Below, in pieces: positions 3,687 to 20,125 of a stretch of 37,180 nucleotides of DNA. How positions within the stretch are numbered: the stretch's first letter is position 1; each line of letters begins with the position of its first letter. The position numbers and the translations under genes were made by a program. The DNA is from a virus: IMG/VR virus record IMGVR_UViG_3300031920_000103, positions 74,694 to 111,873 of that record, one strand, 5' to 3'. Below the pieces are notes generated by a model that made no database searches, had not been told where the DNA came from, and saw only the letters and a program-made list of their open reading frames with translations.

Positions 3687-4448
3687 TTAGACTGCCCCCA
3701 AGGAACGTTGCTTCCTCTTCCGACTCGACGACTGAGTAGGGAAGAAGAAGTTTTGGTCGAAAGGGAGCGTCACGTCACTTAGTGCGTAGCACTCGTTACA
3801 CTCGATCTCGATCGTGGTCTCGACGCCGCAATCAACCTCATCGAATTTGCCAATCAAATCGTTCGCTACGCCTAGCGGCATTTCCTCGATATACTTGCGC
3901 ATGTCGTTTTTGTTTACGCCTTGGATCTCCTCGATGCGCATCCGCAGCGAGAGCGACACGAGAGAGTCCCTGTGCTGCGATTTAAGGGCCAGTGCCCGCT
4001 TTTCGTCGGCACCTACGGGCAGATTGAAAAACACCGGTGTACCGTCAAGCAGGGCCGTCTCGTAGCGGTTCGCATTCTTGTACGCCGCCCGCTGCGCATC
4101 GGTCAGGCTACTTACCGGCATGTCGTCTAGGTTGACTTCCCACTCGAAACGGTTGTTGCACCCGCCCGCGCCGCACTGCGCCTTAAACAGATACTCGGCA
4201 CCGAGAGTTGCTTTGCGGATCTGTAGTAACAAATACGTTCGATCACCAACTAGAACTCGATCCCAGTCTAGCGGGGCTGAGTACGGGCCGTGATCTTCCA
4301 CGGTCTCAACCGCTGCGGTCAGTAGCTTGTTGATCATCGCGGGCATTTTCTTTGCCCCCGATGCGTTGGCCAAAATGTCGGCCTCTTTTGTTTTTAGTCC
4401 GCGCACTGTGCAGACCATCCCCGAGGGGCACGTAACTTGTTCACTCAT
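3687..4448 (-). CDS. Tail assembly chaperone (T4 gp26/baseplate hub assembly-like)
   Basis: ATG at 4448 (MSEQVTCPSG) after a purine-rich RBS; GDRTYLLLQIR, CxxxxC and CxxC motifs; between tube and tape measure. Confidence 0.75.
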   Translation of the reverse strand: MSEQVTCPSGMVCTVRGLKTKEADILANASGAKKMPAMINKLLTAAVETVEDHGPYSAPLDWDRVLVGDRTYLLLQIRKATLGAEYLFKAQCGAGGCNNRFEWEVNLDDMPVSSLTDAQRAAYKNANRYETALLDGTPVFFNLPVGADEKRALALKSQHRDSLVSLSLRMRIEEIQGVNKNDMRKYIEEMPLGVANDLIGKFDEVDCGVETTIEIECNECYALSDVTLPFDQNFFFPTQSSSRKRKQRSLGAV

Positions 4449-4473
4449 GGTTGTTTGGTTCTTTCCCGTCTCG

Positions 4474-4514
4474 AAAAAAGAAAGCACCGAGCCCCTAATT
4501 AGGCCGGTGCTTTC
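4474..4514 (-). terminator. Intrinsic terminator after the tail tube gene
   Basis: Minus strand GAAAGCACCGGCC-TAATTAGG-GGCTCGGTGCTTTC followed by TTTTTT. Confidence 0.75.
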
Positions 4515-4581
4515 GGTAATGTAACTGGCTCAGACCTCGCGATCTTTAGGGCGTGGCCGGCGCACCCGTTTGCTCGGTCTA

Positions 4582-5073
4582 CTAAGCTGCGATCGGCTCA
4601 AAGAAATCGTAGGTGAGAGTCACCATCTCGATCACTTTTTCGTCGGAGTCGTTGTCCCATTCGCCGGCGACAAACTTTTGCGGCCAAGCGTTGTAGAGAC
4701 GCCAACGTCGCAACGTTGTGCCGTCGCGGTCTTGTTGGATCACGTCGAGCGTGCGCTTGTACAAAGGATCGGGAAGACCCGCGCCTTGCCCCGCCGGGAC
4801 CGCGCCCGCGCCAAAGCTCGCAGCGTTTGCTACGTCGTTGAACCAAGCGTACATGTCGAGATCTTCGGTAGCGCCGCGCTCAAGCGTTACGTCTGTGAAC
4901 GTCAAGCGGCCGGGGCTCTTGTGCGGGATAAGGGCACCGCCCTCGCTGTATTCGATTTTAGCGGCCTCGACAGAAAGCTCTGACATTTTGTTGAAACCGG
5001 CCGACTGAATGCCGTCGATCTCAACTATGAATTTGAACTTATCGTGAAAGCTGCGGGGTTGTCCTAGGGTCAT
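4582..5073 (-). CDS. Tail tube protein, T4 gp19 / Afp1-5-like
   Basis: [22 protein letters not shown]...[16 protein letters not shown]...W.LYNAWP.K...W......IE...L.Y family pattern; TAAGGA RBS upstream. Confidence 0.92.
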
Positions 5074-5098
5074 TGATCATTCCTTACGAGGCAAGCTC

Positions 5099-5127
5099 TT
5101 GCCTGCGAAACTTTTTAGGTATATGGT
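5099..5127 (+). promoter_or_regulatory. Putative sigma70-type leaderless promoter of the endonuclease VII gene
   Basis: TTGCCT-17 bp-TATGGT, 5 nt before the ATG at 5133; no Shine-Dalgarno; palindrome AGGCAAG-CT-CTTGCCT (5089-5104) overlaps the -35. Confidence 0.55.
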
Positions 5128-5132
5128 TACGC

Positions 5133-5639
5133 ATGGCATGTCTTTGTGGTTGCGGTGAAACACCTAGTGCGGATACTCGCTCGTTTGTGGCGGGGCATTG
5201 GAACAGACCGTGCAGATCACCGGATGAGTTCGCGGTGTGGAAGCCGGCGCGGGATGCGCTTAGGCTGGAAAATGGCAGAGCGCGCAGTCGTGTGAATGCC
5301 GCGCAGCGTCGCAAGGATTTCCCGGACGACGCTACTGAGCGCCGCAGGATGCAACTGTGGACACGATACCGCATCACGCCAGACGAGTACAAAGCCATGT
5401 TGGCGTCGCAAGGGGGGGTGTGCGCCGTATGCGGGACAGACGATCCGAAGTCGGGTAAAGGCGGATTCGTAGTTGACCACGCGCACGAATCCGGCCCGTA
5501 CAATGGTGGGCGTACTGGTGACATTCGTGGTGCTTTGTGTGGGCGCTGTAACATGGCGTTGGGGCAGTTAGGTCATGATGTCGAGGTACTCAGAGCCGCT
5601 ATCGTGTACTTGAGCAAAGACCCGGCGATTAAACGCTAG
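5133..5639 (+). CDS. Free-standing endonuclease VII-family (His-Me finger) homing endonuclease, antisense to the tail operon
   Basis: N-terminal CLCGCG..F..GH motif; Y.IT..EY..ML.SQGGVCAVC...VDHAH...IRGALCGRCNMALG is the EndoVII signature. Start placed at ATG 5133. Confidence 0.88.
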   Translation: MACLCGCGETPSADTRSFVAGHWNRPCRSPDEFAVWKPARDALRLENGRARSRVNAAQRRKDFPDDATERRRMQLWTRYRITPDEYKAMLASQGGVCAVCGTDDPKSGKGGFVVDHAHESGPYNGGRTGDIRGALCGRCNMALGQLGHDVEVLRAAIVYLSKDPAIKR

Positions 5640-7852
5640 GATGCTAGCTCCTCTTCAAGTGCTCGCGTGTCTTGGCTCACTTTCAAAATCACAAAGTCGG
5701 TTGGCTTGGCAGTCGCGAGACCGATTTTGATAACCATCTGACGGGCGAAGATAACTGACGGCGGGTTTACCGCCTTCGAGGTATCGACAAAGAACGCGGA
5801 CGCTGGATCGTTTGACGCGAAAGCGTTGTTGCGCATCTGGTTAAGCAGGAACAACGTAACCGTGCGGTTGGCAATTGCTCGCGTCGCTTCGGTGTTCGGT
5901 TGGTGCTTTAGAAATTGCAGACCGCGCTTTAGCGATTGCTCAATGAAGATCACGCCGCGCCGCTCTGGGATGCTCGGGAAGTTCCCGCCCTCTTTGAGCG
6001 TCTTGGTTCCATCGAGGTAAATCGGTAGACCCGGCAACGTGGTGATCGGGTTCACCAACTTGGGGTAAAGCAGATCTAGCTTCGCCTCGTCTAGCGCCTC
6101 AAGCGTCTCGAATCCGAGCACGCCAAACAGGCGACCCGTCTCGATACCAGCGGGGGCACGGTAGACGCCGCCCGGAGATGAGCCGTCAGTGCGCGCGTAC
6201 GCACCGGCGATATGCCCGGAGGGCGGTACGACAATGTTTGCGTCGGTCCCGAACACAGCTTTGCTCGGGTTAAGGATCTCAATTCGAGGCCAGTAGATTG
6301 CGCCGAACTCGGATATGTTGACGAGTTGCGCGGTACTCGTCACGTAGGTATCCATCTCGGCAGCGCTCTGATCTTCCGGGGGATCGAGAACCGCAAACAC
6401 TGCTTTGTCGCGTGTGCTTTCGCAGTACGTGATCATAGCGTTGTGCACAGCGGAGGTTGCGCGACCCGGTACCAACAAAAGTGTCAGGTCTTGGATCGTG
6501 TCGAGTGCGCGGATGCCGGTGTCGCCTGCGTCGCTGCCCACAAAATCGGTGTCGTCGAGCGCGGCTAAACCGTCGTTGCCGCCAACCATAAAGCCAGACG
6601 TTGCGACTGCGGGGCGTGGGTCGGTTGCTGTGTTGAGTTGGTCAACAACAGAAACGTAGATCGATGCGCCGTTGATGATTGTCTCAACGTAACGAGTCGC
6701 CGTTGCAACCATGCTCAGGTTCGGGAACTGCTCGACAATCAAACCGTCGTCAACAACGTTTATGTTGAACTCGTCAGCGGAACCGGAGGTCGGAGCCGTG
6801 CGCTGAATCTTGATCGTGTCTGCGTAGCTTCCGTCAGTCTTGCCGCTAAAGATTAGCGTGGGAGCCGCCGCGCCGGTATCGCCCGAGTGCAGCGCGTTGT
6901 CGAAACCAAGCTCGTCGTCAGCGGTAGATATCGCTTCGGCTTGGATCGAGTTTGCGGGGCCGGCTGCACTTGTCGAGTTGATCTGCACTGCGCCGCCAAC
7001 GTCAGTCACCAGAGTGTTGGCAACGTCAGCCTCGACTACCGCTTTGATCTCCGCAACCGTAACCGCAGAGATGTCGGCAACGTCACCGGTGCCGAATACC
7101 GGTGTGATCGATAAGCCGAGTGCTACTAGCGCGGTGCCGCCCGTAAACGATGTTTGCGAGCCGGTGCCCTTCGAGTCGGAGGTTACGCGCACAGCGCCGG
7201 CTGACACGTCAGCATTCGCGCCAACGATTTCGGCGTTGATAACTGCGGCAACTTCGAGAGCCGTAGCCGCGCCGATCGAGACAAACTCTGCGGTGTTGAA
7301 AACGATCGTTTGGACTGCGCCGCCGTCAACCGCGACCGTTAGATCTTGCAGGTCGGCTAGTGCGAAAGGCCCGGCATTAGTGCCGGTGTCGATCGCTGCG
7401 GCTGCGTCGAAAGTAGCAACAAGAGATCCGCCGCCGTCGACTGACATCGATAGCGTATCGGCGGGGCTCATCGCAAACGGCGCAAGAGTTGTTCCTAGTA
7501 GGATGCCAACCGAGGGCGAGCCGGTGGCGGTGTTGAGAGTCACAGCGCCCGGCGCTGATGTCTTCGTGCCTGGTACGGTGATATTCGTGTAGTGGACGGT
7601 ACGCACGATGTACGCTTGTGATCCGCCGTTCTCAAAGAACCCTTGCACTGCGAGGGTTAGATCAGACGCGGAGGTGTACCCGCCGAACACGCGCACGTAT
7701 TCCTCGAAAGAAGTTACGAACGTTGCAACACCAAGCGGGCCTCGCTCTGTGATACCGACGAAACCGGCAACGGCAGTCGGGACGGATGCGATCGTGCGTA
7801 CGCTAGGCTCCTCCTCAACGACGACGACTTTAGAACTTAGTAGTTGAGCCAT
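5636..7852 (-). CDS. Contractile tail sheath protein with a large inserted domain
   Basis: TAVAGFVGITERGP, SFEEYVRVFGG, GFFENGG, FAVLDPP, AIYWP, PPSGHIAGAYARTD, RAPAG, ERR..IFIEQSL and IGLATAKP motifs. Confidence 0.95.
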   Translation of the reverse strand: MAQLLSSKVVVVEEEPSVRTIASVPTAVAGFVGITERGPLGVATFVTSFEEYVRVFGGYTSASDLTLAVQGFFENGGSQAYIVRTVHYTNITVPGTKTSAPGAVTLNTATGSPSVGILLGTTLAPFAMSPADTLSMSVDGGGSLVATFDAAAAIDTGTNAGPFALADLQDLTVAVDGGAVQTIVFNTAEFVSIGAATALEVAAVINAEIVGANADVSAGAVRVTSDSKGTGSQTSFTGGTALVALGLSITPVFGTGDVADISAVTVAEIKAVVEADVANTLVTDVGGAVQINSTSAAGPANSIQAEAISTADDELGFDNALHSGDTGAAAPTLIFSGKTDGSYADTIKIQRTAPTSGSADEFNINVVDDGLIVEQFPNLSMVATATRYVETIINGASIYVSVVDQLNTATDPRPAVATSGFMVGGNDGLAALDDTDFVGSDAGDTGIRALDTIQDLTLLLVPGRATSAVHNAMITYCESTRDKAVFAVLDPPEDQSAAEMDTYVTSTAQLVNISEFGAIYWPRIEILNPSKAVFGTDANIVVPPSGHIAGAYARTDGSSPGGVYRAPAGIETGRLFGVLGFETLEALDEAKLDLLYPKLVNPITTLPGLPIYLDGTKTLKEGGNFPSIPERRGVIFIEQSLKRGLQFLKHQPNTEATRAIANRTVTLFLLNQMRNNAFASNDPASAFFVDTSKAVNPPSVIFARQMVIKIGLATAKPTDFVILKVSQDTRALEEELAS

Positions 7853-18342: not shown

Positions 18343-18990
18343 TTAGACAACCGGGACAACCGCTTGTTGTGCCCGGTGCGCGGTGTCCTCATCCGGGTAC
18401 CGGCCTATGTAGACCTTCTTGCCGTCTTTGCGGCCCCACGCCTCCCAAGCGCCATTCTTGAAACGCACGCCGGGGTACTTGTTGCGCTTGGGTTTGATCT
18501 TTGCCTCTGCGACTTCCGCGTAGTTGTTGCGCCGCTTGGGAAAGTTGAGCGGTGCTGTTGGGTGGTGCTTGCACACGTACTCGTCGCGGGCAAGCGCGGC
18601 GAGTCGGTCGGTAGGCCACGAGCCTAGGTGCACTTGCTTATTGCCGTAGTTGACGTACGCGCTGAAGTTCCCCCCGTCGATCATACGCACGCCGCGAAAA
18701 CCGAGTGCAGCCTTTGTCGGTTTGGTTTGGTTGTGCGGGTTTTCGGATGCGGTAACGATCCGAAGATTCGAGCGGCGGTTGTCGAGCTTGTCGCCGTTGA
18801 TATGGTCGACGTGCTTTGTTGCGGGTGAGCCCATGATCCAGCGGTGCAGATAGACTCGGTGCCCGCCTATGTCTGCCGCCGCGTACCCGTTCTGTGTGTT
18901 CCAGCGCTTCTCCAAGAGCAACAGGGAGCTGAACACGTCTGCGTCTACGAGGGTGAACCCGCGATTTAGCGGCCATTTGTTTAGTGCCAT
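18343..18990 (-). CDS. Free-standing HNH homing endonuclease with AP2-like DNA-binding domains
   Basis: YLHRWIM...VDHINGDKLDNRRSNLR.VT..EN.HN (HNH), then FRGV...HLG.W....AALARD...LNFP and KYPGV...YIGRY..E..AH.A (two AP2-like units). Confidence 0.93.
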   Translation of the reverse strand: MALNKWPLNRGFTLVDADVFSSLLLLEKRWNTQNGYAAADIGGHRVYLHRWIMGSPATKHVDHINGDKLDNRRSNLRIVTASENPHNQTKPTKAALGFRGVRMIDGGNFSAYVNYGNKQVHLGSWPTDRLAALARDEYVCKHHPTAPLNFPKRRNNYAEVAEAKIKPKRNKYPGVRFKNGAWEAWGRKDGKKVYIGRYPDEDTAHRAQQAVVPVV

Positions 18991-19039: not shown

Positions 19040-20125
19040 CTAAACTACGGGTACAATGGTTGAGCGGCACATTCCGTGAAGTGGGGGCATTTGGATCCCG
19101 GCCGCCTCAAGTTGTGAATTGTTCAGCCCTTTCGAGTAATCGCCAACCCGATCTTTTCCGCCTAGGCCCGGTTTGTCTATCTGCGCGACGCGTTGCTTGT
19201 CGCCTTTGTCGTCGCGGTAAACGATCACCTTGTTGCCGTCGTCGTCGGTGGAATCCCAAGACCACGGGGCCTCGGTCTTTACTTCTTTGGGCTCGGGTAG
19301 CGCATCGAGTTGGTCGTATTTGTTGAGCCCGGATTTTGTCGTGAACTCGCGCCCGTGCATGTAGCGGCAAATCTCGGTTGTGCGCTCATCAAGCACAGCG
19401 TCGAAAGTGTAGGTCTCGATCCCCGCCTCATCGTACGAGGCTAGCTGACCGTAAACTCGCGATCGGTTGGTGTGCGCAGCGGCAACAACCGTCCAATAAC
19501 TTTTGTTCCGCCTTATCGCGCCGCCGCCAATTTCCCGTCTAAGATTTTTTCCGATGTCGTCGCGGCTGAGTCCGTTGTTTAGCCCATCGCCAACAATGCG
19601 CCGCGCCTTGACAGAGTAGGCGTCAATGCGCCGCCCGTATTCGTCGGTGACAAAGTTTGTTTGCGACGTAACAAGTTTGTCGACGATCGCTGCGTCGCGT
19701 TCGTTGAACGCCAACCCGATGTCTAGCACGAGCCGCCGCGAGGTTGAAACCTTAGCGCCGTTTACTACTTTCTCGCCGGTGGCTTGCAGCGTCGTCGATA
19801 TCTTTGGGAGCGTCTGCGCGGCAATCGGTGCGAGCGATTCACTCGACGCTAGGATCACCTCATCCATTTGCGCGACCGTCATGTTTGGCCAATCAACGTC
19901 GAGTGCGTCTAGTGCCTCGCGCAATGCCTTTGCCTCGACACCCGCGTTTGTGCGGCGCATCGAGTTAGATAGCGTTGTGACGATCTGTTTGTAGTCGTCT
20001 GGATCGAGAGGGTCGAGTGCTTTGGCTAGGTGCACGCTGTAGTAGTTTTCGATCAGATCGTCGGCTGCGTCTGCGGCCTCGCGCAGCAATCCAAGATCTT
20101 CGAGCACTGCGTCAGTAGTGCACAC
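19040..20125 (-). CDS. Head morphogenesis / minor capsid protein (Mu F / SPP1 gp7 family)
   Basis: AVLDERTTEICRYMHG and PPLHGMCRSTI motifs; directly after the portal gene. Confidence 0.9.
   Translation of the reverse strand: MCTTDAVLEDLGLLREAADAADDLIENYYSVHLAKALDPLDPDDYKQIVTTLSNSMRRTNAGVEAKALREALDALDVDWPNMTVAQMDEVILASSESLAPIAAQTLPKISTTLQATGEKVVNGAKVSTSRRLVLDIGLAFNERDAAIVDKLVTSQTNFVTDEYGRRIDAYSVKARRIVGDGLNNGLSRDDIGKNLRREIGGGAIRRNKSYWTVVAAAHTNRSRVYGQLASYDEAGIETYTFDAVLDERTTEICRYMHGREFTTKSGLNKYDQLDALPEPKEVKTEAPWSWDSTDDDGNKVIVYRDDKGDKQRVAQIDKPGLGGKDRVGDYSKGLNNSQLEAAGIQMPPLHGMCRSTIVPVV

Follow-up and report, generated by a model that had tools for sequence, protein, structure and literature searches.

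A displaced tail sheath gene end beside an inverted Endo VII-type nuclease gene: a candidate case of homing by 3'-end replacement in an uncultured myovirus

The sequence analysed here is the final 37 kb of the 111,873-bp (base pair) IMG/VR virus record IMGVR_UViG_3300031920_000103, from an uncultured 112-kb myovirus (positions 74,694 to 111,873 of the record; 37,180 nucleotides (nt), hereafter the window, with positions counted from its first letter). Between the tail sheath and tail tube genes of this virus lies an inverted gene for an endonuclease VII (Endo VII)-type nuclease, which is flanked by two synonymously different copies of the sheath 3' end. We propose, with a probability of roughly 80%, that the insertion is a selfish cassette of ~550 bp (about 5099-5650), consisting of a control region, an inverted Endo VII/DHHRN homing nuclease gene and a synonymous replacement of the sheath tail, and that it homes by 3'-end replacement. 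The insertion, the duplicated tail, the native tube-side copy and a patchy distribution in close relatives are directly observed in the sequences compared below.

Results

The sheath gene reads ...E-E-E-L-A-S-stop at its end, with its last five codons at 5636-5650 on the minus strand. Beyond the nuclease gene, 10 nt from the tube ATG (5073) and contiguous with a native-like spacer, stands a second E-L-A-S-stop, hereafter the scar (Table 1). The attached tail and the scar differ at four bases, all of them at third codon positions (stop codon included) and all synonymous. An earlier note on this DNA, made from the sequence alone, had described two such copies around an inverted nuclease gene, and this layout was confirmed from the sequence and its open reading frames (ORFs), as was the sharing of one CTAG by the sheath and nuclease stop codons at 5636-5639. 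The scar lies in the sheath reading frame, 552 nt downstream (5084-5638), and the same holds for a homologous cassette at the viral locus L039, at a distance of 582 nt (L039 4919-5503). Read-through or splicing to the scar was unsupported, since the frame between the two tails contains one extra stop beyond the sheath's own, both in the window and in L039.

Table 1 Features of the sheath-tube junction in the window
Feature	Coordinates	Strand	Remarks
Tail tube gene, gp19 family	4582..5073	-	163 amino acids (aa); PF06841, E 4e-32
Native spacer with the tube Shine-Dalgarno; TAAGGA overlaps the scar stop	5074..5083	-	9/10 bases identical to the L046 spacer
Scar: displaced native sheath 3' end, E-L-A-S-stop, now non-coding (as judged by comparison)	5084..5098	-	Matches empty-allele tails and the L039 scar
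Palindrome of 16 bp with 7-bp arms, across the scar/cassette junction	5089..5104	.	
Cassette end upstream of the nuclease ATG, putative control element	5099..5132	+	Layout conserved in four diverged cassettes
Free-standing Endo VII-type (DHHRN) HNH nuclease gene	5133..5639	+	168 aa; antisense to the tail operon; PF02945
CTAG, overlap of the convergent sheath and nuclease stop codons	5636..5639	.	L039 has the same CTAG overlap
Putative recoded replacement sheath tail, last four codons plus stop	5636..5650	-	Minimum extent of the cassette-borne tract
Tail sheath gene	5636..7852	-	738 aa, intact; ends ...QDTRALEEELAS-stop; homologues named phage tail sheath or with PF04984

When the 562-nt gap was dinucleotide-shuffled 100,000 times, ELAS-stop turned up in 15 of the trials, and in only one of 100,000 within the last 62 nt. 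A screen of the whole 112-kb genome for ORF tails (four residues plus stop) that are repeated no more than 1.5 kb downstream gave four matches, compared to a control mean of 0.33. The earlier note had allowed that such matches might be equally common in shuffled controls, which these counts do not bear out. Two of the four matches involve real genes, namely the sheath case and a Mu-F head protein gene with an HNH-AP2 gene, both flanking nuclease genes; the other two were rejected as antisense ORFs, one of them within a tandem-repeat gene.

The three closest homologues of the nuclease (P0002, P0003 and P0004; 58, 49 and 47% identical, respectively) are all encoded by inverted genes between sheath and tube, on contigs from other samples. 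In L039, 16 codons of the sheath tail (SFSQDTRALEEELAS-stop) are repeated beside the tube ribosome site. The two L039 copies encode the same peptide and differ at 15 of 48 bases, all synonymous and including three Ser codon-family switches; when 15 changes were placed at random, the peptide was preserved in none of 200,000 trials. Because a homologous cassette bears a scar of 16 codons, the tail duplication is not due to chance. Since non-coding drift in place would not have been limited to synonymous changes, either the L039 copies must have been shaped as coding sequence in different alleles, or the attached copy changed under protein constraint with the scar nearly frozen. At another occupied locus, L043, the nuclease gene overlaps the sheath 3' end by 60 nt on the opposite strand (L043 4148-4207), whereas the overlap in the window and in L039 is limited to the CTAG. 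Scans with the nuclease alignment revealed no further occupied alleles in metagenome or viral contigs, and a representative-protein search returned, beyond P0003, only distant multi-domain Endo VII proteins.

Relatives of the sheath were found at 36 viral loci, 33 of which hold both a sheath and a tube gene, in conserved synteny. The closest sheath relatives, L045, L046 and L047/L048, are also empty, the sheath gene being followed directly by the tube gene, and the sheath proteins of L045-L047 share 73-75% aa identity with that of the window overall and 79-83% in the C-terminal half. These empty sheath genes end GAG CTT GCA TCG TAA (L045, L046) or GAA CTC GCC TCG TAA (L047), followed by ggagtgatc... 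and then the tube ATG. The scar and spacer of the window are identical to L046 at 23 of 25 bases, compared to ~71% for the sheath genes as wholes, so that the expectation in the earlier note, that nuclease-free relatives should end like the 5084-5098 copy, holds almost letter for letter. The scars match the empty-allele tails at 13-14 of 15 bases (window) and 26-28 of 30 (L039), the attached tails at 23-24 of 30 (window) and 20-22 of 30 (L039). Where the closest empty alleles have CTT or CTC, TCG and TAA, the attached window tail has CTA, TCC and TAG, and the CTA leucine codon is common to the attached tails of the window and L039. The two scars are identical to each other at 14 of 15 bases, and the spacers beside them are each typical of their own lineage and mutually unlike.

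Given that the scars resemble empty tails and adjoin lineage-typical spacers, the tube-side copy is, on this comparison, the resident native end and the sheath-attached copy the replacement. The empty alleles and the L039 scar thus back the earlier proposal that the cassette displaced the original sheath 3' end and supplied a recoded one. We infer a replaced tract of only ~5 codons, and a Ser codon-family switch at codon -13 hints at a longer one. Among the empty alleles, the last 16 codons form the most nucleotide-conserved window (87.5%, L045 versus L047). Native tails and scars may have stayed so similar because they contain a conserved nuclease target, because the neighbouring tube start site constrains them, or for both reasons. 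Deposited phages gave no DNA match to the region, and the exact scar-junction pattern was not found in the viral contigs searched. The genome collection yielded only distant relatives of the sheath, and no host is therefore assigned.

At the sheath-tube junction, four occupied loci stand against more than 35 empty ones. The occupied alleles fall into two separate pairs in the sheath tree, both adjoining empty alleles, and those of the nearer clade, with the closest relatives added (support 1.0), are interleaved with empty ones. Identity to the empty L045/L046 is higher for the window (75%) and for L039 (77%) than the identity between these two (68%). All related loci holding both genes have a sheath-tube gap of 8-43 nt, except L032, where a different HNH gene, co-oriented with its neighbours, fills the same gap (L032 5582-6337). 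The sheath-tube junction is a recurrent insertion site, as this second type of nuclease gene in the L032 gap indicates. The L032 gene contains repeated C-x-C-G-C-G motifs and ends 3 nt before the tube ATG.

The nuclease matches PF02945 (recombination endonuclease VII) with E 7.6e-20 and 71.1 bits, well above the cut-off of 23.6, and a six-frame search found this match (72.3 bits) to be the sole copy in the genome. Its C-terminal half aligns to the catalytic core of T4 Endo VII (residues 10-71; E 2e-5), with the catalytic and zinc residues C-x-x-C, D-H-x-H, Arg and C-x-x-C-N, which define the DHHRN homing family (PMC6083498), all intact. These residues are invariant in the four cassette nucleases, except that the second His is Lys in P0003 and P0004. 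Also invariant among the four proteins is the N-terminal stretch of 80 residues (C-x-C-G-C-G ... GHWNRPCRSP), which is probably the DNA-recognition part. The ORF most likely starts at ATG 5133, rather than at TTG 5073 as given by the ORF finder. Since PF02945 is single-copy here and missing from four of five related genomes, three of them complete, the nuclease gene is accessory and not the resolvase of the phage; a resolvase role was rejected on the same complete genomes. Housing in a self-splicing intron or an intein was likewise rejected, as an Rfam search of 4400-6200 gave no match at E up to 1 and hence no intron-like RNA, and the nuclease lies on the strand opposite to its host gene.

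In all four cassettes, the 34 nt before the nuclease ATG contain a TTGCCT-like hexamer, a gap of 16-17 nt and a TAnnnT hexamer whose end lies 5-7 nt from the ATG; a Shine-Dalgarno is lacking, and this layout suggests a leaderless nuclease transcript. The element of the window contains two weak hexamers, a -35 at 5099-5104 and a -10 at 5122-5127, the latter ending 5 nt before the ATG. No terminator was found between sheath and tube, the only candidates being weak terminator-like matches inside the sheath gene, so that transcription presumably still runs on from the sheath into the tube, across the antisense nuclease gene.

The last seven bases of the cassette are the inverted complement of the Leu-Ala-Ser codons of the scar, and together they form the 16-bp palindrome (5089-5104). 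The corresponding arms of L039 are separated by 33 nt, and their pairing is preserved through one A/T swap. An RNA hairpin at the junction folds no better than shuffled sequences (z 0.02 and -0.89). Three readings of the palindrome are conceivable: an operator similar to the homing site, of the kind described for I-TevI (PMC2988022), a trace left when the junction was formed, or chance. Of the two features that the earlier note had placed at this junction, the palindrome is thus present, whereas the -35 is a weak match in a gap where a consensus scan found no sigma-70 site.

A second tail duplication was found in the same genome. The Mu-F head protein gene (minus strand) ends ...IVPVV-stop (19040-19057), and the co-oriented HNH-AP2 gene that follows it (18343-18990) itself ends ...VVPVV-stop, all five sense codons of the two tails differing at the third base. 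In relatives of Mu-F, the next gene follows directly without a nuclease. These relatives are too distant (64% or less) for the native copy of the Mu-F tail to be assigned. Two unrelated nuclease genes, the Endo VII gene beside the sheath and the HNH-AP2 gene beside Mu-F, thus show the same tail-plus-stop duplication. In L084 and L085 (3540-3590 in each), which hold the nearest relatives of Mu-F, the gene call ends at a TGA in the exact position of the conserved Cys codon of an HGxCRST motif, and the frame past this TGA continues RSTIVP(L/I)V-stop; the TGA could reflect read-through, selenocysteine or recoding.

Nuclease genes are numerous in the genome (C1): in addition to the Endo VII gene, six PF13392 (HNH_3) matches were observed in ~5 genes (two in one 230-aa frame), at 5.6-6.0 kb, 17.7 kb, 30.7 kb, 44.7 kb and 93.4 kb, the last being the HNH-AP2 gene of the window. 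The sheath protein (5636-7852) has no Pfam match at E 0.01 and is ~210 residues longer than its 530-aa homologues bearing PF04984, which suggests an inserted domain.

Discussion

Our findings can be accommodated by the following sequence of events. During a mixed infection, the nuclease would cut a nuclease-free sheath allele in or near its nucleotide-conserved 3' end, and repair templated by the occupied genome would copy the cassette. The left junction would be formed through homology within the sheath gene, and the right junction just upstream of the remaining tail codons of the recipient. The altered tail of the cassette would then complete the sheath, no longer matching the target, while the old tail would be displaced downstream to become the leader of the tube gene, keeping the native stop and ribosome-site context of the latter.

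Several points weigh against this homing scheme. We infer from sequence comparison what the nuclease would target, where it would cut, and that recoding would destroy its own target and so make the occupied allele immune. Divergence in the attached tails does not exceed the gene average, and recoding for immunity is therefore inseparable from ordinary synonymous drift after loss of the tube-site constraint. The L039 nuclease might be expected to cut the near-native 48-nt scar of its own locus if its site were entirely contained there. The cassette need not come with a scar, given that L041 and L043 hold it without one, and a consensus scan of the gap found no sigma-70 promoter. A co-conversion tract is not visible, as sliding-window identity (at ~72% divergence) showed no step near the 3' end. 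Finally, the nucleases have diverged in parallel with the sheaths, a pattern equally compatible with a cassette that was long inherited vertically and lost in some lineages.

The last point leads to an alternative that we regard as unlikely, in which a single old insertion is now inherited vertically, with a nuclease that may be non-homing or domesticated, empty alleles that arose by precise loss through recombination between the tail copies, and a scar kept for the translation start of the tube. The nuclease identities track those of both sheath and tube, the near-identity of the window and L039 scars is in line with such descent, the strong conservation of the last 16 codons among empty alleles suggests constraint by the tube ribosome site, and direct repeats would permit clean excision. 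This account is at odds, however, with the occurrence of occupied alleles in two separate clades, interleaved with empties in the nearer one, with scar spacers that are each native to their lineage and unlike each other, with the different HNH gene in the L032 gap, which points to repeated invasion of the site, and with the intact nuclease ORF and catalytic residues.

Considerably less probable is a reversed polarity, with a resident tail on the sheath and a tube-side copy that arrived as the far end of the cassette. The direction is difficult to judge once both copies co-convert together after a first event, and an attached tail no more diverged than the gene average is what a resident end could look like. 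Yet the spacer and tube start that directly adjoin the tube-side copy match those of the closest empty relatives, with which this copy has the ending TCG TAA in common, whereas the attached tail ends TCC TAG. A chance resemblance, a drifted target-site duplication or an assembly artefact has next to no probability, even for a window repeat of just 15 nt, and is refuted by the empty-allele match, by the shuffles (1.5e-4), by the synonymous-only 16-codon repeat of L039, which is unlike drift in a non-coding copy, and by the same architecture in independent assemblies from different samples.

Homing by 3'-end replacement, as proposed here, has its closest counterpart in the WHO elements of Torulaspora yeasts, in which a nuclease gene travels with a substitute for the 3' part of its host gene, and the former part becomes a displaced relic that tends to degenerate or to be lost (PMC7282813; bioRxiv 10.64898/2026.08.13.744650). 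In both systems, no splicing is needed, the host gene is left intact and the old 3' part is displaced downstream. However, WHO nucleases are HO-related LAGLIDADG proteins with zinc fingers, whereas the window encodes an Endo VII type, and their host is the nuclear eukaryotic gene FBA1, of which half is replaced, compared to 5-16 codons of the sheath gene. WHO elements also cluster as successive insertions, with cleavage and allele-specific resistance shown experimentally, whereas the present cassette is known from sequence. The window thus shares with them an alternative 3' part carried along and an old part displaced, and has neither a LAGLIDADG/HO nuclease nor an FBA1 host.

A second parallel is found in fungal mitochondria, where free-standing homing nuclease genes occur with partial C-terminal duplications of atp6 or cob (for example PMC6279837), the duplicated segment lying, as here, beyond the nuclease ORF downstream of an intact gene. 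The comparison with 3'-end replacement in fungal mitochondria drawn in the earlier note is therefore apt in this respect. The mitochondrial cases differ in being organellar, in their LAGLIDADG or GIY-YIG nucleases, and in their often in-frame fusions, same orientation and longer duplications. The cassette works like WHO elements and the fungal C-terminal duplications, and is not a member of those families.

Among phages, the seg/mob genes of T4-like viruses that undergo 'intronless homing' (PMC2988022) resemble the cassette gene in lying between conserved genes, in a patchy distribution, in an expected target in neighbouring conserved sequence and in a possible antisense orientation (segD). 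They are, however, mostly co-oriented with their neighbours and of the GIY-YIG or HNH rather than the Endo VII type, and the same review of T4 mobile elements makes no mention of duplicated, displaced or remnant host-gene ends. F-CphI of cyanophage S-PM2 is, like the nuclease of the window, a free-standing DHHRN protein with a C-terminal Endo VII motif and a separate N-terminal part, but it targets a site of intron insertion in psbA, the N-terminal regions of the two proteins are unrelated, and no replacement of a host-gene end is described for it (PMC6083498). T4 endonuclease VII itself (gp49; PDB 1e7d, 2qnc) aligns over the core, with the zinc cysteines, D-H-x-H, R and N conserved. Whereas gp49 is an essential junction resolvase, the gene of the window is accessory, has an extra Cys-rich N-terminal region of 80 residues and interrupts an operon.

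A full-text literature search, of incomplete coverage, returned no phage example of 3'-end replacement, and no duplication of a host-gene tail is described in a Xanthomonas phage HNH paper or an ICP1 nuclease paper. Together with the Mu-F case, it is conceivable, at somewhat below even odds, that 3'-end-replacement homing is a general and undescribed strategy of phage nucleases, in which a synonymous tail may immunize the occupied allele and the native end may serve the translation start of the next gene and, possibly, as an operator for the nuclease.

If the homing reading is correct, selfish nuclease genes can enter an essential phage structural gene at its coding end with neither intron nor intein, by supplying a replacement for that end, and a mechanism of yeast nuclei and fungal mitochondria would be extended to bacterial viruses. 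Its signature, the recurrence at the peptide level of a gene's final codons beyond a nuclease gene, may be used for dating insertions, mapping likely cut sites and finding active elements in metagenomic phage genomes. For annotation, it calls for caution, as a short orphan in-frame tail ahead of a ribosome site may be such a scar. The pair of scar and empty allele, moreover, provides a concrete substrate for an uncharacterised Endo VII-type nuclease.

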